From Octopus vulgaris (taxonomy: Eukaryota), in contig OX597833.1 in the NCBI GenBank assembly GCA_951406725.2, positions 22,754,001-22,818,000 on the forward strand: a stretch of DNA of 64,000 nt, in the 5' to 3' direction. Position 1 is the stretch's first letter, and each line of letters begins with the position of its first letter. Shown piece after piece: positions 15,405 through 64,000 of this stretch. The translations under genes were made by a program, and so were the position numbers. The notes under the pieces were generated by a model that worked only from the letters and a program-made list of their open reading frames with translations, was not told the DNA's origin and ran no database searches.

Positions 15405-15484
<80 letters not shown>

Positions 15485-15575
15485 ATATGACTAGGTGCTT
15501 TTTTTATTATCAGAAGCAGTAAACCCACTGATTTCAATCGATAAAGCCTCTGTTCTTTTACAATTTTCTTTTCAG

Positions 15576-16118: not shown

Positions 16119-16299
16119 GTAGGTGATATTATGTTTCTTTTTAAATTTCTTTACAAATTTTTCATATTTCTAATTATTTAGATCATTTTAATATCAAAAC
16201 CTAAAATATCAAAACATATAAAACAGAACAGTTTTTACATTGCTAAACTGCCATAAGTTTATCAGAAGTAAAATTTACGAAGCTCGTATTTTTCTTGAG

Positions 16300-18400: not shown

Positions 18401-18515
18401 TTTAAAAATACCAATTAAGAACTAGGGTAAGGTGAGGGACGAATTAATTCGATTGTACCTGCTCTAAAATAAGTGGATTGTATACCAATGCAAATAAATG
18501 TAATAGTAATCATTA

Positions 18516-18987: not shown

Positions 18988-19094
18988 GTCCTTGCATTTT
19001 CTTTGGAGTCGTCATTTGTCACCATTAACGTTATAATATCACTTGTTGTCACCTGACCTGAAACCGTTTCCCCCTCTCTTCTTTTTCATGTCAG

Positions 19095-33451: not shown

Positions 33452-34696
33452 ATCTATCTATCTATCTATCTAAAGAGAAGGTAATTTGTTGGAACGCCTC
33501 TGATCATGAGGTTTGTTCAATTAAGGCTGACGGTGAGGTTAAATTTAAAAAAGCACAACAACAGCAGCATTTTATTTGAATCTGTATTAACTGTGATGTC
33601 GGGAAATGATTAAACAAGCATTGAGAGACCATTGTTGACCTTTTCCTTTATGGAATTTCATTTGTAATGTTTTGTCAATGTAACTGGATTTCACGTTTCC
33701 TTTTATATATTCGTGAAAGACAAATAAATGTTATACACTATTGAATATTTGTTTGCATTATGTTTTAAATAACTTAATTATCACCACTATAACTCGTCGT
33801 TTGCAACAAGTTATTTGTCATTTTATGTTGACATAATTTGTCAGTTGTCATTATAACATGTCAATTACCACAACTTGTCAATTGTCGTTTGTTGTTTCAG
33901 CTTATCTACTGTAAAAAATTGCCAGTTGTTGTTTATAACTTAGTTGTTATGGCGCTACTTTGGCGTGTGATCAACAAAAGAGATTACTTTAGGTTACTTT
34001 TTAGTTTATTTTTCAATTTCTAAAAACCCGTAAGATTACTATTACAATGTGTTATTCATAATTTGTCAATTATAACTGGTCACATGCTATTAACTGCATT
34101 TTCCAGCATATGAATCGAATTTTTCAGACCAAAATGTACAACCAATAGATCGGTAGGTGGACTTATACACCAAGACGGCTATGAAAGGCAAAAAGTCCCA
34201 TGTAAAGTGTAGCAGGACTTGGAAAGGTAGTGATGACTAACTGTATGTATGCTGGAAAACATGGTATAACAGTGTTTACACCTTGTCTTTATAATCTTGC
34301 ATTTTGTAACTTATTCATTTCAATTATTAATTACTTGTCTAAGGCGAGCTGGTAGAATCGATATCATGCCGGACAAACTGCTTAGCGGCATTTAGATCGG
34401 GAGTTCAAATTCTACAGAAGTCAACTTTGCTTTCATTCTTTCGGGGCCGATAAAAACAAGCTCCAGTTGAGCACCTCTCCCCAAAATTGCTGGCCTCGTG
34501 CCTTTAGCACAAAAAATTAATTACTTGTATTATAACTTATTGGTTATAATTTATCACTTAGGGCTTGTAGGTTCTCATAATTCTTTGTTTACAATTTGTC
34601 AGTAGCCATATAATCACTTGTTCATCAACTTATTACATCTATACTGCGTTAAATTTATAAACAAGTTAGCCTATATATAATAATAATAATAATAAT

Positions 34697-40097: not shown

Positions 40098-40650
40098 GGC
40101 TATTTGAAAACGTTATGAAAAAATACTGTTAAATAAAGGGAAATTACTCTGTTATAACTCTGCTTGCCTGCGTACTTATACATCGCTCGCATTTTTCGTC
40201 ATAAAAATTATATAAAAATACATAAAAAATAAATAAAAAATATATAAATTCTTCTTGGGACATAACATAGAAAACAGATAGAACATGCTTCTGGGGTCAA
40301 TCTCTTTGACTAAAACCCTTTAAGGCAGCGCTCCAACACGGCTGCATTCAAATGAATGACTGAAACAAGTAAAACAATAAAAGAAAGTATATCTATCTGT
40401 CTATCTATCTAATATGTATTTCTATATATATTATTATGATTATTATTATTTTTCTAAATCTCTCAAAGAGAAACATTCAGTAATAGGTCTTTAGAGTAAA
40501 GGCTATTTGCCAACATAATGTGGCTGTCCTGGAAGAGGCAATGTTACTGTTATTTCTAGCTGGCTATACAACACAGTATCTGTGTCCTTATATTTTCGAA
40601 CAGGGAGTTCAGCACTCCCATCCAGTGCAATATATATATATATATATATA

Positions 40651-43597
40651 TGTTGTATGCAAGAAATAAGGTGGAGAGGAGGATCTGCTAGGTTCCTCAC
40701 AGGCAAGGAACACAGGTACAAGATTTTCTGGGCAGGGAACACTGACGGGGTTGGTGGCGTGGGTATACTTATCGCTGAGAAATGGATAGATAGAGTAATT
40801 GAGGTAATCAGAGTAAGTGACAGAATACTTAAGATTAGAATAGTGCTTCATAATAGATTAGCAACCATTATATCGGCCTATGCCCCTCAGCTAGGGCTAC
40901 CCGATGGACAGAAAGACAGTTTCTATGACACCCCACTGCAGACCACCTCATTGACGAACGACAGGGACCTTCTCCTTGTGGCTGGTGATTTCAATGGGCA
41001 TGTTGGACGACATGCTGGGGGCTTCCATGGCGTACATGGAGGCTACGGTTATGGTTCCCGCAACGAGGAGGGAACCAGGCTGCTGGAGTTCTGCGATGCG
41101 AATAGTCTTATGGTCTGCAACACTAACTTCAGGAAACCAACAAGCCACCTGGTCACCTACCGATCGGGCCGGCATACTAGCCAAATCGACTACATCCTTG
41201 CCAGAAAAAGGGAAAGATGGCTGCTTATAAATGTCAAAACCTTCCCGGGCGAAGAATGCACCCCACAACATAGACTGGTAGTTAGTGACTTTAGGATCAG
41301 GACTAAGAGGGCGACTAGAAGACGACCAACATGGAGAAGAAGGGTCTGGAAGCTTAAAGACCCTGCGAATGGACAGAGATTTAGAGATATGTTACTTGAA
41401 GCCTTTGACGAAGTGGAAGGGGGTATAGCTACACATGGGGTAGAAGACAACTGGACGTTTCTGAGGGACAACCTGCTGAAAGCCGCTGACCAGATCTGTG
41501 GCTGGTGCAAAGTCCCCTTAAGAAACCAAAATAACGTGGTGGTGGAACAATATTGTTGACAGGGCTATTAGACAAAAGAAACAGGCTTGGAAGGCCTGGA
41601 AGAACGGTGGTAGCAGGGAAGGGTATCAGACTGCCAGAAGGGAAGCTAGGAGACAGGTCTATCTAGCCAGAGGGGAAGCAGATAAGAGAAAATTTGCCAA
41701 TGTCCTGCGCCGTGAGGATGAAAGACTTGAGGTATTTCGTGTTGCAAGACAGTGTGTGAGAGAGAATCGTGATGTGGTAGGAGAGAAATGTGTTCGCATG
41801 GAGGATGGTTCACTTGCGCTAAATGAGGATGCAAAGAGAGAAGCTTGGAGACGCCACTATGAAAGGTTGCTGAATGAGGAAAATGAATGGGATAAAGAGA
41901 GTCTGCCGAATGTTGACCCTACAGAGGGACCAGCTATCCGAGTTGATAGTTCCGTGGTAGCTAAGGCAATTAGAAGCATGAAGACAGGGAAAGCCCCAGG
42001 CCCATCAGGAATTACTGCAGAGATGCTCAAAATATCTGGCAGTGTCGGCTATAACCTAGTCACCCGTATAGTCAACCAGGTGATACACGAAGGAGTCATA
42101 CCCAATGACTGGTGCAGCAGCATACTAGTCAACTGCTACAAAGGTAAAGGTGATGCCCTAGATACAAATAATTACAGAGGTATCAAGCTGTTGGATCAAG
42201 TAATGAAGGTTACGGAGAGGGTCATAGCCCAACTAATTAGAGAGAGAGTTAGTTTAGATGAGATGCAGTTTGGGTTCGTGCCAGGGAAAAGTACCACTGA
42301 TGCTATATTCCTGGTAAGGCAGCTGCAGGAGAAATACCTAGCCAAAGATAAGCCCCTGTACCTGGCTTTCGTTGACATGGAGAAAGCTTTTGATAGGGTC
42401 CCCCAATCCCTTATCTGGTGGTCAATGAGGAAACTAGGGATAGATGAATGGCTGGTGAGGACTGTGCAAGCCATGTACAGAGATGCCGTAAGTAAGGTTA
42501 GGGTTGGCAACATGTACACAGAAGAATTCAAAGTAGAGGTTGGGGTCCACCAGGGTTCAGTACTCAGCCCCCTCCTATTTATCATAGTACTCCAGGCAAT
42601 TACGGAGGAATTCAAGACAGGCTGTCCCTGGGAGCTCCTCTACGCTGACGACCTTGCTCTTATTGCTGAGTCACTATCAGAACTGGAGGAGAAGTTCCAG
42701 GTGTGGAAGGAGGGTTTAGAATCAAGGGGCCTTAGAGTCAACCTAGCTAAAACCAAAGTACTAATAAGTAGGAAGGTAGACAATCCACAAATGTCTTCAG
42801 GAAGATGGCCCTGCTCGATCTGTAGAAAAGGTGTAGGTAGAAACTCTATAAGATGTACCCAGTGTAAGCTATGGACACATAAGAGGTGCAGCAATGTCAA
42901 AGGTAGGCTAACTGGGAAGATAGTTTTTGTATGTGGCAGATGCTCGAGAGCATTAACCTCCGAAAATCTGCAGAAAACAACTTCCGTCACTTTCCAGGGG
43001 GAAAAACTAGAAGTAGTTGATAGCTTCTGTTATCTAGGTGACCAAGTCAGTAGTGGGGGTGGGTGCGCTGAAAGTGTAACTGCTAGAATAAGAATAGCCT
43101 GGGCAAAGTTTAGGGAGCTCTTACCTCTGCTGGTGACTAAAGGCCTCTCGCTCAGAGTAAAAGGCAGACTGTATGATGCGTGTGTACGAACAGCCATGCT
43201 ACATGGCAGCGAAACATGGGCCGTGACTGCTGAGGACATGCGTAAGCTCGTGAGGAATGAAGCCAGTATGCTCCGTTGGATGTGTAATGTCAGTGTACAT
43301 ACTCGACAGAGCGTTAGCACCTTGAGAGAAATGTTGTACCTAAGAAGCATCAGTTGTGGTGTGCAAGAGAGACGATTGTGCTGGTATGGTCATGTGGCGA
43401 GAATGGATGAAGATAGGTGTGTGAGAAAGTGCCAATCCCTAGCAGTTGAGGGAACCCGTGGAAGAGGTAGACCCAGGAAAACCTGGGACGAGGTGGTGAA
43501 GCACGACCTTCGAACTTTAGGCCTCACTGAGGAAATGACCAGCGACCGAGACCTTTGGAAATATTCTGTACGTGAGAAGACCAGGCAGGACAAGTGA
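40651..43597 (+). pseudogene. LINE EN-RT polyprotein, single frameshift
   Basis: The second frame (ITWWWNNIVDRAIRQKK...) is open from ~41525 into ORF 41756-43597. Confidence 0.85.
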
Positions 43598-44135: not shown

Positions 44136-44421
44136 TGCCAGCACCGCCTCGACTGGCTTCCATGCCGGTGGCACATAAAATACACCAATCTGACCGTGGC
44201 CGTTGCCAGTCTCGCCCGGCACCTGTGCAGGTGGCACGTAAAAAGCACCCACTACACTCACGGAGTGGTTGGCATTAGGAAGGGCATCCAGCTGTAGAAA
44301 CATTGCCAGATTAGACTGGAGCCTGGTGCAGCCTTCTGGCTTCCCAGAATCCCGGTCGAACCGTCCAACCCATGCTAGCATGGAGAACGGACGTTAAACG
44401 ATGATGATGATGATGATGATG

Positions 44422-44455
<34 letters not shown>

Positions 44456-44501
44456 TGACTGCGTTGAAGATCGTGTGGCACCAGACATCAAGGTCCGCAG
44501 C

Positions 44502-46860
44502 CAAGGAGATCCAGGAATTACTAGCAAGGAAGAGGGCAGCTCATTAGGCCCACCTCGCACAACCAGCCTGTCCTGTAAAGAAAACTACCTTTCGACGCGC
44601 ATGCAGCACCCTACAGCGAAAACTCAGAGAAATGCAGAACGTGTGGTGGAACCACCTGGCATGGAGAACCTCAGAGACTATAGAGGCTTTTATGAGGCTC
44701 TGAAAGCAGTGTCTGGCCCCACCTACCTGGTCCAGAGTCCTCTGCACAGTTCAGATGGACAGGACCTCACCGATAACACCTCCATCCTCGCTCGCTGGTC
44801 CGAGCACTTCCAAAGCCTCTTCAGTGCTAACCGTACCATACAGGACGCTGCCATCCTTCGCATTCCTCAACTTCCACTCAAAGAGGAGCTCAACAAACCA
44901 CCCACCCTCGAAGAAACGATTGAAGCCATTGGTGGTTAATATGACATGCTGTTAGAGACTTCTTGAGGCAGTCTTTGTAGCGCTTCCTCAGAGCTCCTCT
45001 CACACGGTGGCCGATGGAGAGTTCGCCAAACTGGGCAATCTTAGGTAGGCAATGGTTCTCCATTCTGGAGACATGCCCTGCCCATCGGAGGTGGGACTTC
45101 AGTAGCATGGCTTCAATGCTGGGGATCTCGGCCCGCTCCAAGACTTCAATATTTGTGACGAAATCACTCCAGTGAATGTTGAGGATGGTGCGGAGACATC
45201 GTTGGTGGAAGCGCTCGAGGAGACGGATGTGACTGCGGTAAGTAATCCAGGTCTCTGAGCCATAGAGAAGAGTGGTGAGAACCACGGCCCTGTAGATAAC
45301 TGATCTTTGTTTTGTTCTTCAAGTTATCATTGTGCCAAACACGTTTGTACAATCTGCAAAAGGACCTATTTGCCTTAGAGAGTCTATTTTCAATTTCTTT
45401 GTCGATCCTTGCATCGAATGAGATGATGCAGCCCAGGTATGTAAACTGCTGAGTTGATTTCAGTTTGGTACCACATATAGTGATATGGGGTGGGCGGTAA
45501 TCCTCTTGGGCTGTAGTTGGTGAAGTACCTCCGTCTTCTTGAGGCTGACTGCCAGGCCAAAGAGCCGTGAGGCGTCTGCAAGGCAGGATGTGATGCGCTG
45601 CAGAGCTCGCTCTATATGGGCGACAAGGACAGCGTCGTCTGTGAAGAGAAGGTCTTGGATCAGCCTCTCCTGGGTCTTGGTGTGGGCTTGGAGGCGCCAT
45701 AGATTGAAGAGGCTGCCATCAAGACAATACCTAACACACCCCATCCTCATCCTCCATTTCTTCAGTTGCATGCTTGATCATCATGCTGAAGAGAGCCGGT
45801 GCCAGGACACATCCCTGCTTCATGCCGTTGGAGATGGGGAAGGGCTCCGACAGGTCACCATTGAGTCTTATCTGACCACGCTGATTCTCGTGCAGCAAGA
45901 TCACCATCTGTAGAAACTTGGTGGGACAGCCAAGTCGTTCCAGGATGAGCCATAGTCCTGTCCTGCTCACTGTGTCAAATGCTTTTGTGAGGTCGACAAA
46001 AGCAGCATAGAGTCCCCTGTTTTGTTCTCGACATTTCTCCTGGAGTTGGCAGAGGACGAACACCATATCCGTTGTGCCTCTGTTGGCTCTGAGGCCACAC
46101 TGGCTCTTGGGGAGGTTTTCTTCAGCAATGGTTGGTACTAGCCTATTGAGCAGGATCCTGGCAAGTACTTTGTCGGCGATGGAGAGTAGGGTGATTCCCT
46201 GGTAGTTGAAGCAGTCAGACTTTTCACCCTTGTTCTTGTACAGGGTTATGATGACGGTGTCGTGAAGATCCTGTGGCAGCTTGCTCTGCTCCCAGCAGCA
46301 GACAAGAAAATCATGGAGCATTGGACCTTCATTCTTCCAGATTTCTGGTGGGATGCCGTCAACTCCTGCTGCTTTGCGACTCTTGAGTTTTCCTATGGCT
46401 TCAATCGTTTCTTCGAGGGTGGGTGGTTTGTTGAGCTCCTCTTTGAGTGGAAGTTGAGGAATGCGAAGGATGGCAGCGTCCTGTATGGTACGGTTAGCAC
46501 TAAAGAGGCTTTGGAAGTGCTCGGACCAGCGAGCGAGGATGGAGGTGTTATCGGTGAGGTCCTGTCCATCTGAACTGTGCAGAGGACTCTGGACCAGGTA
46601 GGTGGGGCCATACACTGCTTTCAGAGCCTCATAAAAGCATCTATAGTCTCTGAGGTTCTCCATGCCAGGTGGTTCCACCACACGTTCTGCATTTCTCTGA
46701 GTTTTCGCTGTAGGGTGCTGCATGCGCGTCGAAAGGTAGTTTTCTTTACAGGACAGGCTGGTTGTGCGAGGTAGGCCTAATGAGCTGCCCTCTTCCTTGC
46801 TAGTAATTCCTGGATCTCCTTGTCATTTTCATCAAACTAGAAGCTGAGGACTACTGAAGA
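44502..46860 (-). mobile_element. Second RTE (BovB-like) LINE fragment with an inverted duplication of its 5' part
   Basis: Minus strand RWSEHFQSL, KAAGVDGIPPE, FVDLTKAFD, GMKQGC, LFTDD, YLG, LLYGSETW, LRWAGHV, with frameshifts; 44502-44929 is the reverse complement of 46395-46822. Confidence 0.9.
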
Positions 46861-47649: not shown

Positions 47650-48212
47650 AAACTGATTTATATACATCCTGCAGACATGGCACTGCATCTGGTATATTCC
47701 AATAATCACATATTGTCACAAGGAATGGGTTTTTCCAATATGACTTCAAAATGGAACCAAAATATTTGGATGCATGAACTCAATGGTTTTGGCAATTTTG
47801 TTTGATGCCTAACATTTCTGACAATACACAAATCCAAACATCATGAGCATGAGCATTTTGTTCTTCAATGATGCCAGATAGAGTTTGTTGATTACATTAA
47901 TATGTGCTATGTAACCAACACCATGACAATATATAGGATAGTTCTCCCCTTGATACAACATTTTCTCACTGAGTTCACGGAATTTTTTGTTTTTGTGATG
48001 GTCTGATTTTCTTCCAGGAAAGCAATTACAAAATGCAAAATGATTATCATAATCAACTTGAGACAAATCATAATGAAGAAATGGCAGAAGTTTGATCTGG
48101 TCAACAAAAAGTTCATCATTTAATACCATAACATATTCCACATTGGCACAAAACTCCACACTCCACTTCCATGCCATAAGTGTCTTTAAGTAGACATTAC
48201 CATAAGAATGTT
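47650..48212 (-). pseudogene. Beta-1,3-galactosyltransferase (GT31) fragment, disrupted
   Basis: SYGNVYLKTLMAWKWSVEFCANVEYVMVLNDELFV and YPIYCHGVGY match GT31 motifs; DxD is altered to NDE, there is a frameshift near 47845, and no N-terminus was found. Confidence 0.7.
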
Positions 48213-48851
48213 GGAGAGAGTCTAAGAAATGTCTGTAGGTAAGACTTTATATGAAGGGTGTATAATTTTTTGGGTGGTGGTAATAATAATAATCATAATA
48301 CCACCTTGGGGTCCTTTCGATTAGTACTGAGGAGAGGGGATGAAGGATGAAGACTGATAAGTTTTTTGAGGGGATGGGTAGGGATTCCTTCTATTTTGTT
48401 ATACAACCTTTTCATTTTTTTTTACAAAATATATATGTATGCATATAAAGGAGGGGAAGGGAAACGGCAATGAGTGGAGTTATTCATGTTTCTTTTCTTT
48501 CTTTTTTTTTTTTTAATATTTTTAAATATTCATTTCAGTTCACAGTTCTCTACAACTAGACCAAAAAAAAAAAAGTGAAAAATCACTCACACATATTACA
48601 GAATGGAGTTGGACAAGTGATGTGTAGTTAGAAGAATGCTTTTTCTCACCCAGAGTTTTACACCAAATCCAGTTCCATCGAACTAATATTCATAGATCTG
48701 CTCTTGCTCCCACCCCTGCATTACATTACACCCACCAATGTTAAGGCTTTTTTGTTAATGTCATTGTTGTTGTGGTGTGGTAAATGGTTCAATAGACCCT
48801 CTCACCCTAACGTGTTTATGTTAAGTTCTTTTCTTCAAAGATTCTCAAAGT

Positions 48852-49867
48852 TCAGAGTCCGTACTTCAGCCTCCAATTTTCTCTGTTGGAAACTAACAAA
48901 ATCTCTGCCCTGCTCCCCACCTCTCCTTTCCACTTCTTCCTCCTCCTCATCCTCCTCCACCTCCTCATCGCCATCATCACTCGACGTCTTGCCTTCGAAC
49001 GATGTGAGAGAACATGGCGTTGGTGGCATGGCAGAGAGTCGACTTTACCGACGATAGCCTCCAAGTTTCTCCGTTGGAAAGTTACAAAATCTCTGCCCTG
49101 CTCCCCACCTTTCCTTTCCACTTCTGCCTCCTCCTCCTCCTCCTCCTCCTCATCGGCATCATCACTCGACGTGTTGCCTTCGAACGATGTGAGGGAACAT
49201 GGCGTTGGTGGCGTGGCAGAGAGTCGACTTTGCCGACGATGACGGGCATTGCAACTGCTGCTGTTGTTTCGTGCCTCACCACTTCTACAGCACTGTTTGT
49301 CCGACACTACTGCACCTGTATCCAGTGACCCGTCAGATGCTGATGATGTCGAAGAGGAAGGAGAAGGGTAACTACTAGTACTCAAGTTTGTTGCTGACAC
49401 TTCTGTTTCTGAACTTGTTGCCCGACCTTTGTCAAGGCTTGTGTTTTTCTTCTTGCGGGTTATCCGGTAGTCTTTTGAATCTTTCCCTTCCTTGTGCAGG
49501 ATCTGAGTTAGCTTTCGACGACGTGCGTTGTTGAACCTGTCCTCAGAGGCAATCACACTTTTTTCTCGGGGTGTTGCTGCTACTGCTGCTGTAGATTTTG
49601 CAGAAGGCACTACACGGGAGGCAATGACAGAATTCATGGGATTTTCAACAACAGGTTGAAGCAGTGAGAGCTTGGCAAAGGGCTTGACCTGCCGAGAAAA
49701 TGGAGTGCTACAGATCTGATCTGGCAGTAGCAAGGTCTCCTCTTTTATAGCAACAGACTTCAGTGGAAAGTTCACATGGTGGTGGTCGTGATGTTGGTGA
49801 TGATGGCTGTTATATATGGAATATGTTGTTAATGGATCTACACTGGGCTCTGCTTTGATCTTGGTTA
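48852..49867 (-). CDS. TGIF-like exon copy A: homeodomain deleted in frame, retains the Ser/acidic C-terminus
   Basis: ttttcag|TA acceptor; EDR is joined directly to FNNARRRKLTQILHKEGKDSKDYRITRKK; a 185-bp internal duplication shifts the frame of the tail. Could be a pseudo-exon. Confidence 0.6.
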
Positions 49868-50771
49868 CTGAAAAAGAAAAAATATTCATGAGGATCAATA
49901 CAAAGAAAATAAATTTAAGTAATACTTTATCAAATAAAGAAAGACGAAAAGCTTAACTTCTTTTATTACCAACCTCCTTGAGACTGCTCTTTCTTCTGCA
50001 ATACTATCCTTCTGTTTTATCAAAATTCACATTAATTTATGTTCTAAGAACTAACTAGATTCTTTAATAATTTCAAAATTAATTGAACTGAATGCATTGT
50101 ATATCAATAGAAATATGGTAATGAAAGGATTCAGTCAACACTGGTACGTAACTAAATACCTCTAAGTATAGGTCACATACACTTGTCAAATCAAAGCAAA
50201 TATGTAAATTAGTTGACCTGTCCTGCATCTATGCTATGGGTCATTCAGCATTAACAATGAGTAAGTGGGGTTTAACAACAAAGCTAACAGCTCAGGCTCC
50301 AAGTAAAGAAATAATTTCTAACACAGCTTATTAAGCTGGAGGAGTCAATTTCTTAGACTAGTCATTATTCTTGTCCCCTCTTAGAAGAATAAAAGCTAAA
50401 GTCAACCCTGAGGGAGTTTGAACTCAAAATGTAAAATGGGTAAGGCACAATTTCTGAAGACCTACCAGGTACCTAACTTCCTTATCATAATAATAGTAAT
50501 CACAACACCAACCTATTATAGGCACAAGGCCTGAAACTTGGTGGGAGGGAATGGTCAATTACACTGATCCTGGCACTTATTTCTATCAACTCAAAGAATG
50601 AAAGGCCAAGTCAACCTTGGCAGAATTTGAACGCAGAACACAATGATGGATGAAATGCTGCTGAGTATTTTGTTCAAAGTACTAATGATTCTGCCGCTCA
50701 CAGCCACAATTCCTTAAATAACCCTCTCTACTACAGGCACAAGGTGTGAAATATGGAGGTAAGGGGAATAG

Positions 50772-51297
50772 TCAATCATATAAACTGGTAGGAGAAGGGT
50801 AACTGCTATTACTCAAGTTTGTTGTTGACACTTCTGTTTCTGAACTTGTTGCTCGACCTTTGTCAAGGCTTGTGTTTTTCTTCTTGCGGGTTATCCGGTA
50901 GTCTTTTGAATCTTTCCCTTCCTTGTGCAGGATCTGAGTTAGCTTTCGACGACGTGCGTTGTTGAACCTGTCCTCAGAGGCAATCACACTTTTTCTCGGG
51001 GTGTTGCTGCTACTGCTGCTGTAGATTTTGCAGAAGGCACTACACGGGAGGCAATGACAGAATTCATGGGATTTTCAACAACAGGTTGAAGCAGTGAGAG
51101 CTTGGCAAAGGGCTTGACCTGCCGAGAAAATGGAGTGCTACAGATCTGATCTGGCAGTAGCAAGGTCTCCTCTTTTATAGCAACAGACTTCAGTGGTAAG
51201 TTCACATGGTAGTGGTCGTGATGTTGGTGATGATGGCTGTTATATGTGGAATATGTTGTTAATGGATCTACACTGGGCTCTGCTTTGATCTTGGTTA
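50772..51297 (-). pseudogene. TGIF-like exon copy B: homeodomain deleted, 1-bp frameshift, truncated 3' end
   Basis: Same deletion junction as A; T5 instead of T6 run at ~50990; ends PSPTSLYD*. Confidence 0.7.
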
Positions 51298-52212
51298 CTG
51301 AAAAAGAAAAAAGGAAAAAAAAATATTCATGAGGATCAATACAAAGAAAATAAATTTAAGTAATACTTTATCAAATAAAGAAAGACGAAAAGCTTAACTT
51401 CTTTTATTACCAACCTCCTTGAGACTGCTCTTTCTTCTGCAATACTATCCTTCTGTTTTATCAAAATTCACATTAATTTATGTTCTAAAAACTAACTAGA
51501 TTCTTTATTAATTTCAAAATTAATTGAACTGAATGCAGTGTATATCAATAGAAATATGGTAATGAAAGGATTCAGTCAACACTGGTACATAACTAAATAC
51601 CTCTAAGTATAGGTCACATACACTTGTCAAATCAAAGCAAATATGTAAATTAGTTGACCTGTCCTGTATCTATGCTATGGATCATTCAGCATTAACAATG
51701 AGTAAGTGGGGTTTAACAACAAAGCTAACAGCTCAGGCTCCAAGTAAAGAAATAATTTCTAACACAGCTTATTAAGCTGGAGGAGTCAATTTCTTAGACT
51801 AGTCATTATTCTAGTCCCCTCTTAGAAGAATAAAAGCTAAAGTCATTCCTGAGGGAGTTTGAACTCAAAATGTAAAACAGGTAAGGCACAATTTCTGAAG
51901 ACCTACCAGGTACCTAACTTCCTTATCATAATAATAGTAATCACAACACCAACCTATTATAGGCACAAGGCCTGAAACTTGGTGGGAGGGAATGGTCAAT
52001 TACACTGATCCTGGCACTTATTTCTATCAACTCAAAGAATGAAAGGCCAAGTCAACCTTGGTAGAATTTCAACGCAGAACACAATGATGGATGAAATGCT
52101 GCTGAGTATTTTGTTTAAAGTACTAATGATTCTGCCGCTCACAGCCACAATTCCTTAAATAACCCTCTCTACTACAGGCACAAGGTGTGAAATACGGAGG
52201 TAAGGGGAATAG

Positions 52213-52907
52213 TCAATCATATAAACTGGTAGGAGAAGGGTAACTGCTATTACTCAAGTTTGTTGTTGACACTTCTGTTTCTGAACTTGTTGCTCGACCT
52301 TTGTCAAGGCTTGTGTTTTTCTTCTTGCGGGTTATCCGGTAGTCTTTTGAATCTTTCCCTTCCTTGTGCAGGATCTGAGTTAGCTTTCGATGACGTGCGT
52401 TGACGAACCAGGCTGACACCTGTTTCTGCTTTATGTTCAGACTAGTTGCCATCTTCAGTATATCATCCTCACTGGGATACGCACGGTAGCGGTTCGACTT
52501 GAGCCAATCAGTCATAACATGAACTGCCTTTTTTGGCAGATTTCCTCGAACCCGTCGTTTGCACCTGTCCTCGGAGGCAATCACATTTTTATCTCGGGGT
52601 GCTGCTGCTACTGCTGCTGTAGATTTTGCAGAAGGCACTACACGGGAGGCAATGACAGAATTCATGGGATTTTCAACAACAGGTTGAAGCGGTGAGAGCT
52701 TGGCAAAGGGCTTGACCTGCCGAGAAAATGGAGGGTCTATTGGATTGCTACAGATCTGATCTGGCAGTAGCAAGGTCTCCTCTTTTATAGCAACAGACTT
52801 CAGTGGTAAGTTCACATGGTGGTGGTCGTGATGTTGGTGATGATGGCTGTCATATGTGGAATATGTTGTTAATGGATCTACACTGGGCTCTGCTTTGATC
52901 TTGGTTA
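52213..52907 (-). CDS. TGIF: TGIF-type TALE homeobox exon, copy C (intact homeodomain)
   Basis: RRVRGNLPKKAVHVMTDWLKSNRYRAYPSEDDILKMATSLNIKQKQVSAWFVNARHRKL has the TALE AYP loop and RGNLPK arm, followed by a TGIF-like post-homeodomain segment ILHKEGKDSKDYRITRKK. Family-level call only. Confidence 0.85.
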
Positions 52908-53009
52908 CTGAAAAAGAAAAAATATTCATGAGGATCAATACAAAGAAAATAAATTTAAGTAATACTTTATCAAATAAAGAAAGACGAAAAGCTTAACTTC
53001 TTTTATTAC

Positions 53010-53035
53010 CAACCTCCTTGAGACTGCTCTTTCTT
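53010..53035 (-). CDS. Candidate micro-exon upstream of the homeobox exon (present in all four copies)
   Basis: ttgcag| acceptor with donor gtaata (26 nt) or gttggt (22 nt); both are frame-compatible with the phase-1 acceptor. The pyrimidine tract is weak. Confidence 0.3.
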
Positions 53036-54744
53036 CTGCAATTACTATCCTTATGTTTTATCAAAATTCACATTAATTTATGTTCTAAAAACTAACTAGA
53101 TTCTTTATTAATTTCAAAATTAATTGAGATGAATGCAGTGTATATCAAAAGAAATATGGTAATGAAAAGATTAAGTTAACATTGGTACGTAACTAAATAC
53201 TTGCAAGACAAATTTCATCCCAACACAATGTAAAAGGTAAAACCCCTTTTGGTCATGAACGACCATGAGATTGTACCTAGAAAGTTCCCCTCCAAGGCAC
53301 AAGTCTAGGCAAAGTTGTTTATGGAAGACCAGCATCCATTCACCGGGCCACCGATGTGCTCCAAGGGAAAGACAAAAGCTGATACAGCTTGGCACCAGTA
53401 ACATCACAACTCATTTCTACAGATGAGTGAACTGGAGAAATGTGAAATAGAGTGTCTGGCTCAAAAACATATTCAACCCAGACCGGAAATCGAACTCACA
53501 AACTCATGATTGTGAGCCAAATGCTCTAACCACTGAGCCATGCAACTTCATAGTAATAATTCCTGATATTAACATTAGGGTACCTTCAGCATGAGCGTTC
53601 CAATGTCCTCTTTTCCAAGCATGCATGGGTCAAATGGAATTTGTTGACTTTCTACAGATGGCTGCCCATCCTGTTACTAACCTTCACTTGATTCCAAGCA
53701 AGATGTGTCTCACAAGAGAATGGAAATAAATAACACTGCCTGTATGTCAGTGATGCTCACAACCACCACGTGATGTCAAGACATGGGCACATACATATAT
53801 ATTGGGCTTCTTTCTGTTTCCAACTACCAAATCAACTCAGAAGGCTTTGGTTGGCCAAGAGACCTGCCCAAGTACTGCACAGTGGGACTGAACCTTAAAC
53901 CACACAGCTGGGAAGCTTGATATCTACAAAGCCCAAGCTGTAGAGCAGCATTATATCGTTTGATTAAATTAATTCTAGTATATGATTAGTACTCATTTTA
54001 TTGTCCCTAGAAGAAAAAAAAGTTGATTTCTGTGAGATTTAAACCCAAAACCCTAGGCATTTTTTTTCATCAAGCCAAGCGAAATTGTAGTCATGGCCAA
54101 TGCTGGTGTCATGTAAAAGCAGCCATTACACTCTTGGAGTGGTTGGCATTAGGAAGAGCATCCAGTCATAGAAACCATACCAAGTTAAACTGGAACCTGA
54201 TGCAGCTCTCAAGCTTATCACTTCCAGTCACACCACCACACCGATGCTAGCATGGAAAACGAACATTAAATGATAATGATGATGACTACAAATTCAGCCA
54301 TTTCCACAATTATATTAATTATAACATAGGCAGAAGACCGCAGATGTAAGGAGAGGAAACTGACAAATAGTTATCATCATCACCATTTTAACATCCATTT
54401 TGCATGCTTGTACAGGTCAAACAGAATTTGTTGAGGCAGATTTCTATGAACTTTACATTGCAACCCTCATCTGTTTCCAAGCTAATATTTCCTCAATGGA
54501 CAAGCATGTTTTCCTAGAAGACTAAAAACAAAAGACACTACTTGTATGAAATGATGCTCAATTCAAACTATCACATGATGTCAAGACAAGGAATCACAAA
54601 CATACACAACCGTACATGTGCACACACACACGACCAGTTGCCATCTACCAAATCCATTCACAAGGCCCTGTGTGAGCTTGTAGCAGAGGACACTTGGCCA
54701 AAAGGAAGGGCTCTGTCAGAGGAGAAAAAAACAGCGCATGATAC

Positions 54745-54832
54745 TTTTTGGAATTTCTGTAAGTAGGAAGAGGAGGAAGAGAATTTGCCTTCAGATCAGA
54801 AACCTTGCTTACTTGTGACAGAATGGACTCTG
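54745..54832 (-). CDS. Candidate upstream exon (AESILSQ...), duplicated at ~61262-61349
   Basis: cctttag| acceptor; donor gtaagc (exon ends 54813) or gtatca (ends 54745). Each pairs in frame with one micro-exon variant. Confidence 0.3.
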
Positions 54833-55289
54833 CTAAAGGAACTGAAGGGATTAAAGGCAAAACTGACCTTGGTAGGATTTGAACTCTGAATGTAAAGAAC
54901 CAGAACAATACCATAAATTATGCTATCTGACACTAATAAGTATGCCGTTTTGCCACCTTGATAATAATTGGTTTTGAAGACCAGGAATTTAGAGGGGAGG
55001 TGGACTGATTAAATTGACACTTGTACTTGACTGGTACTTTATCGATCCTCGGAGGATAAAATACAAAGTTTGACCATGACAAAATTTAAACTCACAAAAA
55101 AAAAAAGAAAAAAAAAATCCTGTAAATACTACAAGGCATTCTGTCTGATGATCTATCAAATTCTGCCAATCACTGTTTTTCAAAGCCATTTGATAAAAGT
55201 CCATTATTTTCGAAATTTTGAAACAAAAGGCAGTGTCAAAAAGATTTAGCGTGAATCACTACCTTCAATCACTATTTCATATATATATA

Positions 55290-55677
55290 CTCTTTTACTT
55301 GTTTCAGTCATTTGACTGTGGCCATGCCGGAGCACCGCCTTTAGTCGAGCAAATTGACCCCGGGTCTTATTCTTTGTAAGCAAAGTACTTATTCTATCGG
55401 TCTCTTTTGCAGAACTGCTAGGTGACTGGGATGTAAACACACCAGCATGGGTTGTCAAGCAATGCTAGGGGGACAAACACAGACACACATATACATATAT
55501 ATATACATATATACGACAGGCTTCTTTCAGTTTCCATCTACCAAATCCACTCACAAGGCATTGGTCGGCCCGGGGCTATAGCAGAAGACACTTGCCCAAG
55601 ATGCCATGCAGTGGATCTGAACCCGGAACCATGTGGTGGGTTAGCAAGCTACTTAGCACACAGCCACTCCTGCGCCT
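55290..55677 (-). mobile_element. Full-length tRNA-derived SINE (duplicated at ~61760-62155)
   Basis: Minus strand head ggcgcaggagtggctgtgtg... with internal CA/TA repeat. Confidence 0.75.
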
Positions 55678-57546
55678 ATGTATATATATATATATATATA
55701 ATTGGACTCTCTTGTCATTAGACAACGTATGAGGGTTTGGCAATTTCATGCTGAAAAACCACACAGATCATTTGTTTGCAGTGATCAAATGTTTGTGTTC
55801 ACATAACCTCACTCCCTCCATCAGATCAACATTACCTGTACAGGTGCACCACGTGTCACATGTCAGATGGCGAAACGATCACAGAGCAACGTGAAATGAA
55901 GTGCTCTGCTCAAAGAACACAATGCAACGTCCGGTCTTGGAATCAAAACCACCATCTTGCAATCGTGAGTGCAACACTGTAACCACTAAGTCATGCACCA
56001 TCACGATATATATATATATATATATGTGTGTATATATATGCACAGGCATGGTTGTGTGGTTGAGTAGCTTGCTTTCAATCCATGTGGGTTTGGGTTCATG
56101 TGGTACTTTGAGCAAGTGTCTTTAAACTACCCACTTGGCATGAACAATGTTTGCTTGTCTAAATCCCCCCGTAACTTAGCAGTTCAGCAAAAGAGACAAC
56201 AGAACAAGTACCAGACACAGAAAAAAAAATTGTAATAAATACTGGGTTGATTGATCTGTTTGAACTCTTGAAGGCAATACGCCAAAACAGCTGCTGCAGT
56301 CCAATGAGTGATGTTAGCAAATGTGTGTGTGTGTGTATTGCTGTGAGGGTTTTGCATGTAAACAGATTCAACATATAAAAAGAAAAAAGCAGCCTCTCCA
56401 TCACTTCACACATGACTGATTAGCACCAGCACCCCCACTATACTCTGTAAAGTGGTTGGCATTAACAAGGGTATCCAGTTGTAGAAACAATGCCAAAGAT
56501 GTCATTGGAACTTGACATGGCCTTGCAGTTCGCCAATATCTGTCAAACCATCCTACCCATGCCAGTATGGTAAGTGAACATTAAATGATAATGCTGGACC
56601 TGATACACTGCCTGGTCCAGGAATCAAACCTCTGACCACTAAATGATTCTACACTAAATAACATATGAATCTAGTGAATGAATGCATGCATGCATATAAA
56701 TATATAAAAGCATTATTGCTGTTAAAAACAGCAATAATGAGGTGGTTAGGAAGACTTCTACCTTAATAGGTGCAATATTAAATATTTGAATAAAAGGGTA
56801 AAAATACTGCTTGCCAAAGATGAAAGCGAAAGCTTCAAAAACCACCAATCCTACGATTAAATACACAAACGAACAATGCAATGAACAACAGAGTGGGACG
56901 TTTAAAGTTCAAAACGCACACAAGTTGACGTAGTTAATATTTTGGAAATAGATGTTGCTATCTCCAACTGAAGATTGCAAAGCATGTTTTCTCATGAACA
57001 GCATGAAATCAATTGATATTGGGGTATGTAAACTACCTTCAAATTCCATCCTGAAGGTAAGCCTATTTTTTAAAGTGTTCATGATGATGATGATGATTCA
57101 CTGCATTGCTCGTGTGTGTATTTATTGTAGGATTGGAGGTTTTTGAACCTTTCGCTTTCATATATATATGCTATGTTGGAAAAACATGTGAGCACAATTC
57201 AGCACAGGAATGATTGTTAAAAATATCGTCTCATACCTTCCACAGTGTACTAGCAAATCCCAACCTTCAATTTACTCCCTTAGCAATAATCTGCCCCAGA
57301 CTGCAAGATCAGGATCAACTGCTACAGTTCTTAGGGAAACAGACTTCACACATCACAGACATGGAGTCTTGTCTTGGGAAGCAGTGATTCAGGATAACAT
57401 TTTGCAAGCAAGACAAATTCTGACAATCAGAAAGCAGGCATCCAGCCTAAAGAGCAGTAGCAGAATACATACTGATACAGTGTAGAGGAGGCGCTTCAAT
57501 TTTGCAATAAAAAAAACTAAAAAAACTGAGTCGAATCAAAGAAAAC

Positions 57547-57586
<40 letters not shown>

Positions 57587-57590
<4 letters not shown>

Positions 57591-57862
57591 AGCACCGCCT
57601 TGACTGGCTTCCATGCCGGTGGCAAGTAAAAAGCTCCAACTGATTATGGCCGATGCCAGACTCCCCTGGCACCTGTGCCGGTGGCACGTAAAAAGCATCC
57701 ACTACACTCATGGAGTGGTTGGCATTAGGAAAGGCATCCAGCTGTAGAAACACTGCCAGATCAGACTGGAGCCTGGTGCAGCCTCCTGGCTTTCCAGACC
57801 CTGGTCGAACTGTCCAACCCGTGCTAGCACGGAAAACGGACGTTAAACGATGATGATGATGA
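57587..57862 (+). mobile_element. Short 3'-end-only copy of the RTE LINE family (or partner SINE)
   Basis: Matches 44136-44421 including the (GAT)n tail; flanked by (TA)n. Confidence 0.85.
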
Positions 57863-57929
57863 TATATATACATACATACAACATATACAAAATCTGCTGA
57901 ATCATTATTGTGTTGATGTAAAAATATTC

Positions 57930-58165
57930 AGTTGTCAAATCAACAAATATGTAAATCAGTTGACCTGACCTAAATCTAAGTGGGACACTTGGATTGTCAA
58001 ACCAATACCAATATATAAATTAGTTTGACCTGACCTACATCTATGCTGTGGGTCATTCACAAGTGTCAAACCAACACCAATGTATTAGCTGACTTGGCCT
58101 ACCTCTAAGTATAAGTCACATACACTTGTCAAATCAAAGCAAATATGTAAATTAGTTGACCTGTC
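57930..58165. repeat. Degenerate ~55-65-bp tandem repeat x4
   Basis: Repeated gtcaaa..aa..aa.at.taaat.agttgacctg units. Confidence 0.6.
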
Positions 58166-58714
58166 CTGCATCTATTCTATGGGTCATTCAGCATTAACAA
58201 TGAGTAAGTGGGGTTTAACAACAAAGCTAACAGCTCAGGCTCCAAGTAGAGAAATAATTTCTAACACAGCTTATTAAGCTGGAGGAGTCAATTTCTTAGA
58301 CTAGTCATTATTCTAGTCACCTCTTAGAAGAATAAAGGCTAAAGTCAACCCTGAGGAAGTTTGAACTCAAAATGTAAAACGGGTAAGGCACAATTTCTGA
58401 AGACCTACCAGGTACCTAACTTCCTTATCATAATAATAGTAATCACAACACCAACCTATTATAGGCACAAGGCCTGAAACTTGGTGGGAGGGAATGGTCA
58501 ATTACACTGATCCTGGCACTTATTTCTATCAACTCAAAGAATGAAAGGCCAAGTCAACCTTGGCAGAATTTCAACGCAGAACACAATGATGGATGAAATG
58601 CTGCTGAGTATTTTGTTCAAAGTACTAATGATTCTGCCGCTCACAGCCACAATTCCTTAAATAACCCTCTCTACTACAGGCACAAGGTGTGAAATACGGA
58701 GGTAAGGGGAATAG

Positions 58715-59397
58715 TCAATCATATAAACTGGTAGGAGAAGGGTAACTGCTATTACTCAAGTTTGTTGTTGACACTTCTGTTTCTGAACTTGTTGCCCGAC
58801 CTTTGTCAAGGCTTGTGTTTTTCTTCTTGCGGCTTATCCGGTAGTCTTTTGAATCTTTCCCTTCCTTGTGCAGGATCTGAGTTAGCTTTTGATGACGTGC
58901 GTTGACGAACCAGGCTGAAACCTGTTTCTGCTTTATGTTCAGAATAGTCGCCATCTTCAGTATATCATCCTCACTGGGATACGCATGGTAGCGGTTCGAC
59001 TTGAGCCAATCAGTCATTACACGAACTGCCTTTTTTGGCAGATTTCCTTGATACTGACGTTTGCACCTGTCCTCAGAGGCAATCACATTTTTTTCTTGTG
59101 GTGTTGCTGCTACTGCTGCTGTAGATTTTGCAGAAGGCACTACACAGGAGGCAATGACAGAATTCATTGGATTTTTAACAACAGGTTGAAGCGGTGAGAG
59201 ATTGGCAAAGGGCTTGACCTGCCGAGAAAATGGAGTGCTACAGATCTGATCTGGCAGTAGCAAGGTCTCCTCTTTTATAGCAACAGACTTCAGTGGTAAG
59301 TTCACATGGTGGTGGTCGTGTTGTTGGTGATGATGGCTGTTATATGTGGAATATGTTGTTAATGGATCTACACTGGGCTCAGCTTTGATCTTGGTTA
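58715..59397 (-). CDS. TGIF: TGIF-type TALE homeobox exon, copy D (divergent homeodomain)
   Basis: RQYQGNLPKKAVRVMTDWLKSNRYHAYPSEDDILKMATILNIKQKQVSAWFVNARHQKL; open from the acceptor to PSPTSLYD*. Confidence 0.8.
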
Positions 59398-62153
59398 CTG
59401 AAAAAGAAAAAAGAAAAGGAAAAAATATTAATGAGGATCAATACAAAGAAAATATATTTAAGTAATACTTTATCAAATAAAGAAAGACGAAAAGCTTAAC
59501 TTCTTTTATTACCAACCTCCTTGAGACTGCTCTTTCTTCTGCAATACTATCCTTCTGTTTTATCAAAATTCACATTAATTTATGTTCTAAAAACTAACTA
59601 GATTCTTTAATAATTTCAAAATTAATTGAACTGAATGCAGTGTATATCAAAAGAAATATGGTAATGAAAGGATTAAGTCAACACTGGTACGTAACTATAT
59701 ACTTGCAAGACAAATTTCATCCCAACACAATGTAAAAGGTAAAAACCCCTTTTGGTCATGAATGACCATGAGATTGTACCTAGAAAGTTCCCCTCCAAGG
59801 CACAAGTCTAGGCAAAGTTGTTTATGGAAGACCAGCATCCATTCACCGCGCCACCGATGTGCTCCAAGGGAAAGACAAAGGTTGATACAGCTTGGCACCA
59901 GTAACATCACAACTCATTTCTACAGATGAGTGAACTGGAGAAATGTGAAATAGAGTGTCTGGCTCAATAACATATTCAACCCAGACCGGAAATCGATCTC
60001 ACAAACTCATGATTGTGAGCCAAATGCTCTAACCACTGAGCCATGCAAATTCATAGTAATAATTCCTGATATTAACATTAGGGTACCTTCAGCATGAGCG
60101 TTCCAATGTCCTCTTTTCCAAGCATGCATGGGTCAAATGGAATTTGTTGACTTTCTACAGATGGCTGCCCATCCTGTTACTAACCTTCATTTGATTCCAA
60201 GCAAGATGTGTCTCACAAGAGAATGGAAATAAATAACACTGCCTGTATGTCAGTGATGCTCACAACCACCACGTGATGTCAAGGCATGGGCACATACATA
60301 TATATTGGGCTTCTTTCTGTTTCCAACTACCAAATCAACTCAGAAGGCTTTGGTTGGCCAAGAGACCTGCCCAAGTACTGCACAGTGGGACTGAACCTGA
60401 AACCACACAGCTGGGAAGCTTGATATCTACAAAGCCCAAGTTGTAGAGCAGCATTATATCGTTTGATTAAATTAATTCTATTATATGATTAGTACTCGTT
60501 TTATTGTCCCCAGAAGAATAAAAATTGAAGTTGATTTCTGTGAGATTTAAACCCAAAACCCTAGGCATTTTTTTTCATCAAGCCAAGCGAAATTGTAGTC
60601 ATGGCCAATGCTGGTATCATGTAAAAGCAGCCATTACACTCTTGGAGTGGTTGGCATTAGGAAGAGCATCCAGTCATAGAAACCATACCAAGTTAAACCG
60701 GAACCTGATGCAGCTCTCAAGCTTATCACTTCCAGTCACACCACCAAACTGATGCTAGCATGGAAAACGAACATTAAATGATAATGATGATGACTGCAAA
60801 TTCAGCCATTTCCACAATTATATTAATTATAACATAGGCAGAAGACCACAGATGTAAGGAGAGGAAACTGACAAATAGTTATCATCATCACCATTTTAAC
60901 ATCCATTTTGCATGCTTGTACAGGTCAAACAGAATTTGTTGAGGCAGATTTCTATGAACTTTACATTGCAACCCTCATCTGTTTCCAAGCTAATATTTCC
61001 TCAATGGACAAGCATGTTTTCCTAGAAGACTAAAAACAAAAGACACTACTTGTATGAAATGATGCTCAATTCAAACTATCACATGATGTCAAGACAAGGA
61101 ATCACAAACATACACAACCGTACATGTGCACACACACACGACCAGTTGCCATCTACCAAATCCATCTACCAAATCACAAGGCTTTGTGTGAGCTTGTAGC
61201 AGAGGACACTTGGCCAAAAGGAAGGGCTCTGTCAGAGGAGAAAAAAAGCAGCGCATGATACTTTTTGGAATTTCTGTAAGTAGGAAGAGGAGGAAGAGAA
61301 TTTGCCTTCAGATCAGAAACCTTGCTTACTTGTGACAGAATGGACTCTGCTAAAGGAACTGAAGGGATTAAAGGCAAAACTGACCTTGGTAGGATTTGAA
61401 CTCTGAATGTAAAGAACCAGAATAATACCATAAAATATGCTATCTGACACTAATAAGTATGCCATTTTGCCACCTTGATAATAATTGGTTTTGAAGACCA
61501 GGAATTTAGAGGCGAGGTGGACTGATTAAATTGACACTTGTACTTGACTGGTACTTTATCGATCCTCGGAGGATAAAATACAAAGTTGACCATGGCAAAA
61601 TTTAAACTCACAAAAAAAAAAAAGAAAAAAAAATCCTATAAATACTGCAAGGCACCATTTGATAAAAGTCCATTATTTTTGAAATTTTGAAACAAAAGGC
61701 AGCGTCAAAAGGATTTAGCGTGAATCACGACCTTCAATCACTATTTCATATATATATACTCTTTTACTTGTTTCAGTCATTTGACTGCGGCCATGCTGGA
61801 GCACCGCCTTTAGTCGAGCAAATTGACCCCGGGTCTTATTCTTTGTAAGCAAAGTACTTATTCTATCGGTCTCTTTTGCCGAACCGCTAGGTGACTGGGA
61901 TGTAAACACACCAGCATGGGTTGTCAAGCAATGCTAGGGGGACAAACACAGAGACACAAAAACACATTTATACATATATATATACATATATACGACAGGC
62001 TTCTTTCAGTTTCCATCTACCAAATCCACTCACAAGGCATTGGTCGGCCCGGGGCTATAGAAGAAGACACTTGCCCAAGATGCCATGGAGTGGGACTGAA
62101 CCCGGAACCATGTGGTGGGTTAGCAAGCTACTTACCACACAGCCACTCCTGCG

Positions 62154-62204
<51 letters not shown>

Positions 62205-64000
62205 GGACTCTCTTGTCATTAGACAACGCATGAGGGTTTGGCAATTTCTTGCTGAAAAACCACACAGATCATTTGTTTGCAGTGATCAAATGTTTGTGTT
62301 CACATAACCTCACTCCCTCCATCAGATCAACATTACCTGTACAGGTGCACCACGTGTCACATGTCAGATGGCGAAACGATCACAGAGCAACGTGAAATGA
62401 AGTGCTCTGCTCAAAGAACACAATGCAACGTCCGGTCTTGGAATCAAAACCACCATCTTGCAATCGTGAGTGCAACAGTGTAACCACTAAGTCATGCACC
62501 ATCACGATATATATATATATATATGTGTATATATATGCACAGGCATGGTTGGGTGGTTGAGTAGCTTGCTTTCAATCTATGTGGGTTTGGGTTCATGTGG
62601 TACTTTGAGCAAGTGTCTTTAAACTACCCAATTGGCATGAACAATGTTTGCTTGTCTACATCCCCCCGTAACTTAGCAGTTCAGCAAAAGAGACAACAGA
62701 ACAAGTACCAGAAAACAGAAAAAAAAAATTGTAATAAATACTGGGTTGATTGATCTGTTTGAACTCTTGAAGGCAATACACCAAAACAGCTGCTGCAGTC
62801 CAATGAGTGATGTTAGCAAATGTGTGTGTGTGTGTATTGCTGTGAGGGTTTTGCATGTAAACAGATTCAACATATAAAAAGAAAAAAGCAGCCTCTCCAT
62901 CACTTCACACATGACTGATTAGCACCAGCACCCCTACTATACTCTGTAAAGTGGTTGGCATTAACAAGGGTATCCAGTTGTAGAAACAATGCCAAAGATG
63001 TCATTGGAACTTGACATGGCCTTGCAGTTCGCCGATATCTGTCAAACCATCCTACCCATGCCAGTATGGTAAGTGAACATTAAATGATAATGCTGGACCT
63101 GATACACTGCCTGGTCCAGGAATCAAACCTCTGACCACTAAATAATTCTACACTAAATAACATATGAATCTAGTGAATGAATGCATGCAAGCATATATAT
63201 ATATGAAAGCATTATTGCTATTAAAAACAGCAATAATGAGACACCTTAATAGGTGTAATATTAGATATATGAATAAAAGGGTAAAAATACTGCTTGCCAA
63301 AGATGAAAGCGAAAGCTTCAAAAACCACCAATCCTACGATTAACTACACACACGAGCAATGCAATGAAGAACAGAGTGGGACGTTTAAAGTTCAAAACGC
63401 ACACGAGTTGACATAGTTTATATTTTGGAAATAGATGTTGCTATCTCCAACTGAAGATTGCAAAGCATGTTTTCTCATGAACAGCATGAAATCAATTGAT
63501 ATTGGGGTATGTAAACTACCTTCAAATTCCATCCTGAAGGTAAGCCTATTTTTTAAAGTGTTCATGATGATGATGATGATTCACTGCATTGCTCGTGTGT
63601 GTATTTATTGTAGGATTGGAGGTTTTTGAACCTTTCGCTTTCATATATATATGCTATGTTGGAAAAACATGTGAGCACAATTCAGCACATGAATGATTGT
63701 TAAAAATATCGTCTCATACCTTCCACAGTGTACTAGCAAATCCCAACCTTCAATTTACTCCCTTAGCAATAATCTGCCCCAGACTGCAAGATCAGGATCA
63801 ACTGCAACAGTTCTTAGGGAAACAGACTTCACACATCACAGACATGGAGTCTTGTTTTGGGAAGCAGTGATTCAGGATAACATTTTGCAAGCAAGACAAA
63901 CTCTGACAATCAGAAAGCAGGCATCCAGCCTAAAGAGCAGTAGCAGAATACATACTGATACAGTGTAGAGGAGGCGCTTCAATTTTGCATTAAAAAAAAA

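Follow-up and report, generated by a model that had tools for sequence, protein, structure and literature searches.

TGIF2LX is a testis-expressed gene of retrogene origin. The non-canonical TALE clades of spiralians (TALE I-XIX, SPILE) are lineage-restricted duplicates that span genera to phyla; TALE-IV contains two homeodomains, one of which is sometimes degraded, and cephalopods are named as undersampled for TALE genes (PMC6118893, available sections). The specificity of homeodomains is set primarily at positions 47, 50 and 54, and position 31 is a backbone contact (PMC11006913, available sections). In TGIF1, Arg220 (position 54) forms hydrogen bonds with two bases of TGACA and Arg167 (position 4) is a minor-groove contact, and exchange of Arg220 for Cys is said to reduce DNA binding drastically. 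Besides DNA, the homeodomain of TGIF1 binds proteins, in vertebrates Smad MH1 (PMC6158717, available sections).

A tandem array of TGIF-related exons was identified in Octopus vulgaris, in a stretch of 64,000 nucleotides (the window; contig OX597833.1, positions 22,754,001 to 22,818,000 of the forward strand). With somewhat better than even confidence, the array is composed of exon copies that were likely amplified by unequal crossing-over and are likely transcribed, and that are disarmed, near-neutrally decaying fragments and not working regulators.

The window contains four copies (c1, c2, c3 and c4) of a single large exon, all on the minus strand, with splice acceptors at 49867, 51297, 52907 and 59397, respectively. 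The four same-orientation copies reported in the earlier note are thus present, as are its near-identical flanks (1.4-3.8% substitutions in the seven flank pairs compared), and the start that it gave for the array, 48835, belongs to the codon at which the parent frame terminates (48835-48837). A 6.5-kb unit (51598-57516 against 58100-63999, 95.5% identity by self-alignment) continues past the window end, where the array runs off the edge as had been stated. To its left are short units of ~1.44 kb (49356-50968 against 50787-52409, 97.7% identity by self-alignment), which equal the long unit minus ~4.9 kb, with the junction at a 3-base microhomology. The exons had been called divergent, which is incorrect among themselves (94-98% identity over aligned blocks) and correct against the parent gene, chiefly in the homeodomain.

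The window exons correspond letter for letter to the named O. vulgaris proteins P0007 and P0009. Public automatic annotations already include the array loci, under assorted names, and their gene models are possibly ab initio. A galactosyltransferase (Galactosyl_T) fragment (47809-48246, minus strand; Pfam PF01762, E 6.7e-15, profile 55-173 of 195) adjoins the array and equals P0009 residues 197-333 exactly. Copy c1 (48835-49867, minus strand) equals P0009 residues 1-196 exactly, has lost the homeobox and is the only window copy that reaches the Ser/acidic tail. The in-frame stop of its open reading frame is at 48852-48854, and an internal tandem duplication in the tail (48868-49240, minus strand; 185/188 nt, 92% identical) pushes the conserved C-terminal motif out of frame. 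The short upstream intron flank of c1 (49868-50159, minus strand), with ~4.9 kb of the long unit gone, ends at the microhomology junction. A spacer of ~630 nt (50157-50786) abuts the truncated exon end and is common to c2, c3 and c4, each of which has its breakpoint into it. Copy c2 (50813-51297, minus strand; 485 nt from acceptor to donor) matches P0007 residues 661-763 and has neither homeobox nor tail. One base is absent from c2 near 50990, inside an A run; this frameshift may be an assembly or sequencing error.

The spacer downstream of c3 (51598-52228) is represented by single contigs with depths of 714.5 (run X8) and 108.7 (run X12). Copy c3 (52254-52907, minus strand) is an exon of 654 nt, or 218 codons, that runs from the acceptor to the predicted donor, begins and ends in phase 1 and matches P0007 residues 443-659. 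It encodes a TALE homeodomain of 63 aa (52372-52560, minus strand), and its long upstream flank (52908-58099) contains the intron end plus repeats. The spacer downstream of c4 occupies 58100-58730, and c4 itself (58756-59397, minus strand; 642 nt, 214 codons, phase 1-1) matches P0007 residues 229-441, with its homeodomain at ~58874-59062 on the minus strand. The long upstream flank of c4 (59398-64000) leaves the window, and P0007 contains one further homeodomain cassette upstream of that of c4.

The Pfam profile Homeobox_KN (PF05920) was found in two of the four window copies, c3 and c4 (E ~1e-11, above cutoff), whose 63-aa homeodomains include a three-residue loop extension and align to TGIF1 without gaps. 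Copies c1 and c2 gave no Pfam match and have in common a 156-nt in-frame homeobox deletion with a 3-base microhomology. The array is also marked by a 12-nt in-frame deletion, at 52734, found in array copies only, and the sites 52391, 52404, 52412-13 and 52460 are likewise diagnostic. The Ser/acidic tail is present in none of the seven homeodomain cassettes and in all seven readable homeobox-deleted model cassettes of both species, so the basic unit is likely a doublet; the O. sinensis doublet model P0010 has an open frame of 414 aa with the tail intact. The designation of all copies as homeobox exons therefore fails for c1 and c2. An expansion of intact homeobox genes is likewise unsupported: with this distribution of tail and homeobox, and with no first exon seen in the window, the copies are fragments of an exon.

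The parent gene encodes P0003 in O. vulgaris (CAI9726559.1), P0008 in O. sinensis (XP_029640185.1) and P0004 in Argonauta (GAB1600401.1), the last being the one parent-like Argonauta protein among the matches listed. Parent and array are located on different chromosomes, namely on contigs of 118.9 and 73.6 Mb in O. vulgaris and of 107.3 and 55.4 Mb in O. sinensis, respectively. Copy c3 is 89% identical to the parent over 93% of c3. A search of the window for the parent's first 23 residues gave no credible match, the best having E 0.14 and lying elsewhere than the copies; from the position of the acceptor, the 22-aa leader would be a separate first exon. Every copy keeps the splice acceptor plus at least ~290 nt of upstream flank, and this retained intron sequence identifies the copies as DNA-level partial duplicates. 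No O. bimaculoides protein, the parent included, was among the matches listed. When a bivalve TGIF domain was used as query, the best 120 of 1787 matches included no cephalopod with a name, which would be expected, though it is no proof, if octopods had no TGIF other than the parent.

The TGIF type proposed in the earlier note was supported by structure, and the phylogeny is in keeping with it. Solved structures in the PDB ranked in the order TGIF1, TGIF2LX, PKNOX1, MEIS and PBX (best match TGIF1 6FQP, E 7e-20), most named matches to the parent domain bear TGIF/AKR labels, and the TGIF-type extension after helix 3 is present. In a tree of 42 rows built from domain plus extension, with five PKNOX-like or unnamed outgroups and no IRX, MKX, PBX or SPILE rows, the seven array homeodomains form one clade (100/98) beside the parent, and array and parent fall on the TGIF side of the outgroups (88/82), a placement that carries a long-branch warning. 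The octopod parent is on a long branch shared with unnamed relatives (P0012-P0015; three in this tree), which have its terminal motifs. Fourteen multi-homeodomain matches from a representatives search were inspected and proved to be TALE or DUX-like proteins of no relation to the array. In the ESM Atlas, the leads were to ACHI/TGIF clusters and all below 0.9.

Across O. vulgaris, O. sinensis and Argonauta, the parent homeodomain does not vary (0/63 differences, against 38/160 outside the domain), and its TGACA-reading residues (N47, I50, N51, R53, R54 and the arm arginines) are complete. The array homeodomains differ from it at 7-12 of 63 positions. The changes are R4V, E11K, R14H, N23cR, K31I, H42Q, N47A, I50V and R54H in c3, and R3Q, R4Y, R5Q, E11K, N23cH, K31I, S37I, H42Q, N47A, I50V, R54H and R55Q in c4. 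All seven homeodomain cassettes contain E11K, K31I, H42Q, N47A (two base changes), I50V/A and R54H, and six of the seven a change at N23c. Of the TGACA-reading set, positions 47, 50 and 54 are thus altered throughout and R4 in five of seven cassettes, in three different ways, whereas N51 and R53 are retained; F49 is also spared in all seven. K31, N47, I50 and R54 are invariant in 116/116 TGIF matches and in 94/94 checked matches of the bivalve TGIF search, counts based on matches picked by likeness to intact domains, which favours invariance. Under uniform placement, the chance that seven changes cover 47, 50 and 54 is 0.0009, and that they cover three of four positions including N51 is 0.003; the positions are canonical and the test is post hoc.

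Nonsynonymous sites outnumber synonymous ones by 25 to 9 among the variant sites of c1-c4, a dN/dS of ~0.82 that does not differ significantly from neutrality (p=0.37). For c3 and c4 by themselves the counts are 17:9 (dN/dS 0.56, p=0.12, not significant). Exon divergence exceeds that of the flank (4.0% against 1.9%), partly through CpG decay, and many of the later arginine losses are explained by this process. CpG-type changes account for 9 of the 26 c3-c4 exon differences and for one of the seven shared base changes in a 155-nt span. Later changes also strike invariant positions (W48C, R55Q, R5Q, V50A and R4).

Read evidence was obtained from four of 24 listed runs (X1, X4, X8 and X12), which carry no tissue labels, compared over 51601-53240; none of the listed runs that contain the sequence is recorded as RNA. 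Word shares in the other 20 runs (0.36-0.49 for those that contain the sequence) count neither way. In run X4, from organism B and of unrecorded kind, reads cover the exon together with repeat-like parts, and depth falls to zero in the unique spacer (51601-51820) and the intron (52921-53085); this exon-limited cover indicates that X4 is likely RNA. Its array-type and parent-type homeodomain contigs have depths of 50.0 and 51.9, respectively, and the contig with the array-only 12-nt deletion 123.2, whereas the parent-type to array-type ratio in the DNA-like run X12 is ~1 to 5.7. Transcription of the array, which the earlier note had proposed to check, is therefore likely from this one run. Run X1, guessed to be RNA, was rejected as expression evidence, its spacer and intron standing at 25-30 against 48 on the exon, as in DNA. 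The same cassette-to-cassette splice is assumed by models of two species (P0007, P0001 and P0010); such splicing is possible because the exons are phase 1-1, and stacking of cassettes the size of c3 and c4 would keep the frame. The junction table for the four runs contains neither this splice nor the homeobox-deletion junction. It seems insensitive, because the homeobox deletion occurs in the window and in the models of two species, and it counts neither way.

Several features were counted for decay, including the frameshifts of c2 and the c1 tail, the missing exon 1 in the window and the 3-nt junction microhomologies. Against decay were counted the in-frame length of the 156-nt and 12-nt deletions, the open frame of P0010, the c3-c4 dN/dS, and an X4 array depth at or above that of the parent. 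The change of positions 47, 50 and 54 together, with N51, R53 and F49 spared, resembles retuning rather more than plain breakage. It is plausible that selection acted early on the recognition helix. The later record (frameshifts, lost terminal motifs, dN/dS ~0.8, changes at invariant sites) is better matched by drift than by the upkeep of a new function.

An unlikely alternative is that the array forms a young family of working transcription factors with a new DNA specificity. The copies would encode spliced doublet or multi-homeodomain proteins whose helix (A47, V50, H54) was retuned by positive selection, perhaps for the germ line or embryo. In addition to the exchange of all three specificity positions with N51 and R53 kept, it can draw on a modest enrichment of shared changes in the homeodomain over the rest of the exon (7/63 against 5/154, p=0.043, or against 4/154, p=0.015, without the column where Argonauta sides with the array). 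In the 155 nt that X4 contigs cover, seven nonsynonymous and no synonymous changes are shared (p=0.19 alone), and a T-to-M change, also shared, places a possible start codon in frame ahead of the homeodomain. Two species' models assume the same splice, and one X4 contig stops exactly at the predicted donor, 52254, which is a weak hint of splicing there with the partner exon unseen; the X12 contig ends at 52251, the point where parent and copy diverge. It is opposed by the near-neutral dN/dS among copies, the later changes at W48, R55, R4 and R5, the frameshifts, the absence from the window copies of the two conserved terminal motifs, the lack of a visible promoter or exon 1, and models that may be ab initio. 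It is similarly doubtful that the Octopus vulgaris complex built a new TALE factor from stacked, spliced copies of a symmetric TGIF exon within a few My, with one to three or more homeodomains in which A47/V50/H54 would read a new motif at parent-level expression, its copy number varying by unequal crossing-over and its role perhaps germ-line or Z-linked. The O. sinensis Z is chromosome 20 (PMC10925132, available sections), and no published link of the 73.56- and 55.35-Mb contigs to a chromosome number was found in the accessible literature.

A decoy or dominant-negative role, by which proteins without DNA binding would titrate the partners of the parent and be tuned by copy number, is equally improbable. 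Parent-type DNA reading was lost in one array by two independent routes, deletion and substitution, and tail-bearing cassettes without homeobox were kept in both species. The double use of the TGIF1 homeodomain as a protein-binding surface (PMC6158717, available sections) and an X4 array depth near or above that of the parent would also suit such a role. Outside the homeodomain, however, pN is about equal to pS, with no sign of purifying selection, and the C-terminal motif of c1 is out of frame.

The named models give a lower bound for the size of the array, as further models may sit in accession gaps. Six O. vulgaris models on the 73.56-Mb contig contain 13 cassettes, of which six have the homeodomain, four have the deletion and three, including c2, end before the domain; three O. 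sinensis models contain four cassettes, one with the homeodomain and three without. In X12, single contigs have depths of 108.7 (spacer), 112.7 (flank), 51.6 (array-type homeodomain) and 9.1 (parent-type homeodomain), a ratio that corresponds roughly to ~12 copies, 5-6 of them bearing the homeodomain, depth being no copy number. The X8 ratio to single-copy-like contigs is likewise a rough one, of ~15-17 copies and 6 for the homeodomain. The DNA-like runs thus suggest ~12-17 copies. That the array is an assembly artefact, through false duplication or uncollapsed haplotypes, is very improbable and already largely refuted: the copies are highly alike, no read-derived contig spans the whole stretch and there is one homopolymer frameshift, but copies with the homeobox deleted and copies with the arm and helix of c4 type recur in models of the independent O. 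sinensis assembly, and spacer and flank contigs rise to these multiples in both X12 and X8. The named models of two species and the depth in DNA-like runs together establish the real multi-copy array that had been claimed.

Copy c4 groups with O. sinensis P0010 (96/78 in the 42-row tree), so the array is likely older than the split between the two species, for which 2.5 My is stated (PMC10700109, available sections). With a published dS of 0.123 over 13-34 My as the scale (PMC10925132, available sections), the 1.4-1.9% by which flanks diverge dates the units at 1.5-5.4 My from one another, in agreement with the young age first proposed.

The decaying-fragment reading can be arranged in four steps. 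In the first, the big exon and the end of the preceding intron would have been copied to another chromosome without exon 1. Local doubling would then have produced the doublet: the homeodomain substitutions would have arisen in a member that shed its tail, and the microhomology deletion would have removed the homeobox of its partner, which retained the tail. The early clustering at 47, 50 and 54 would likely reflect selection against a truncated copy competing with the parent for TGACA sites. Unequal crossing-over in the third step would have generated mosaics, c2 among them, along with the long units of 6.5 kb and the short ones of 1.44 kb, and in the fourth some upstream promoter may drive transcripts that splice from cassette to cassette. 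Since amplification, the copies have likely been drifting.

The array was proposed as possibly undescribed, and no account of it was found in the literature, in which subscription journals were thinly covered; the available sections of PMC13282606 and PMC13093632 contain nothing on this locus. It offers a datable case of the fate of a homeodomain directly after duplication, in which the parent domain is unchanged since the Octopus-Argonauta split and the copies have either replaced exactly three specificity residues or deleted the domain. If the cassettes splice, exon stacking would have been caught early. Public models such as a three-homeodomain 'TGIF2' protein and the TGIF-galactosyltransferase fusion P0009 call for caution, as they may be annotation joins.

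Canonical TGIF1 and TGIF2 and the mollusc TGIF have the TALE homeodomain and the post-helix-3 extension in common with the array. Canonical TGIFs keep K31, N47, I50 and R54, whereas the octopus array copies have lost all four. In the octopod parent, the 22-aa leader is followed in a single frame by homeodomain and tail, both intact, and no array cassette has homeodomain and tail together. The array nests with the TGIF-like parent and is thus likely unrelated to the spiralian TALE expansions, in a tree without SPILE, IRX or MKX; its near-identity to that parent also argues for an origin independent of SPILE and TALE I-XIX. Compared by description only, the octopus array is a few My old and derived from a TGIF-like gene, whereas the spiralian clades span genera to phyla (PMC6118893, available sections). 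TGIF2LX/Y resemble the array as lineage-specific TGIF duplicates on another chromosome. TGIF2LX keeps K31, N47, I50 and R54 (alignment to 2DMN), unlike the octopus copies, which in turn retain the intron flank, are tandem and multi-copy and, unlike TGIF2LX, are not retrocopies.

The homeodomain residue at position 50 carries V or A in the homeodomain-bearing array cassettes (single copies of the TGIF-type exon), whereas T or N occupies this position in the remnant beside the homeobox deletion. Position 50 is therefore altered in both lineages, domain-bearing and homeobox-deleted. R54 is retained in most homeobox-deleted copies.

The octopod parent, the intact TGIF-related gene (P0003 in O. vulgaris and P0004 in Argonauta), forms a long-branched TGIF-like group with four unnamed proteins (P0012-P0015). 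Short N- and C-terminal motifs are common to these six proteins and differ from those of canonical mollusc TGIF. A bivalve TGIF domain used as query returned no canonical TGIF from a named cephalopod among the best 120 of 1787 matches.

Frames encoding LINE-type endonuclease and reverse transcriptase adjoin the array at 40519-43594 (+), 44379-46822 (-) and 32823-33452, and partial duplicates of such frames were found locally. The first part of P0002, one of the array models, is similar to the antisense strand of this neighbouring LINE (window 41013-40951, 81%), which suggests that the array gene models take repeat-derived first exons. A partial galactosyltransferase frame (47809-48246, minus strand) lies directly past the array and is joined to copy c1 in a single model by the annotation of P0009, another array model. 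This frame may be an independent fragment or belong to a duplicated block of greater extent.

At 13037-16123 (plus strand) lie exons of a gene for a major-facilitator transporter (weak MFS_1 match, below cutoff), a possible synteny marker for chromosome placement. A long low-complexity purine/pyrimidine repeat tract (18418-19085) contains open frames in several phases.

The Z chromosome of O. sinensis is chr20, according to PMC10925132. If the contigs carrying the array (73.56 Mb in O. vulgaris and 55.35 Mb in O. sinensis) were Z-linked, the parallel with X-linked homeobox amplicons would be stronger.
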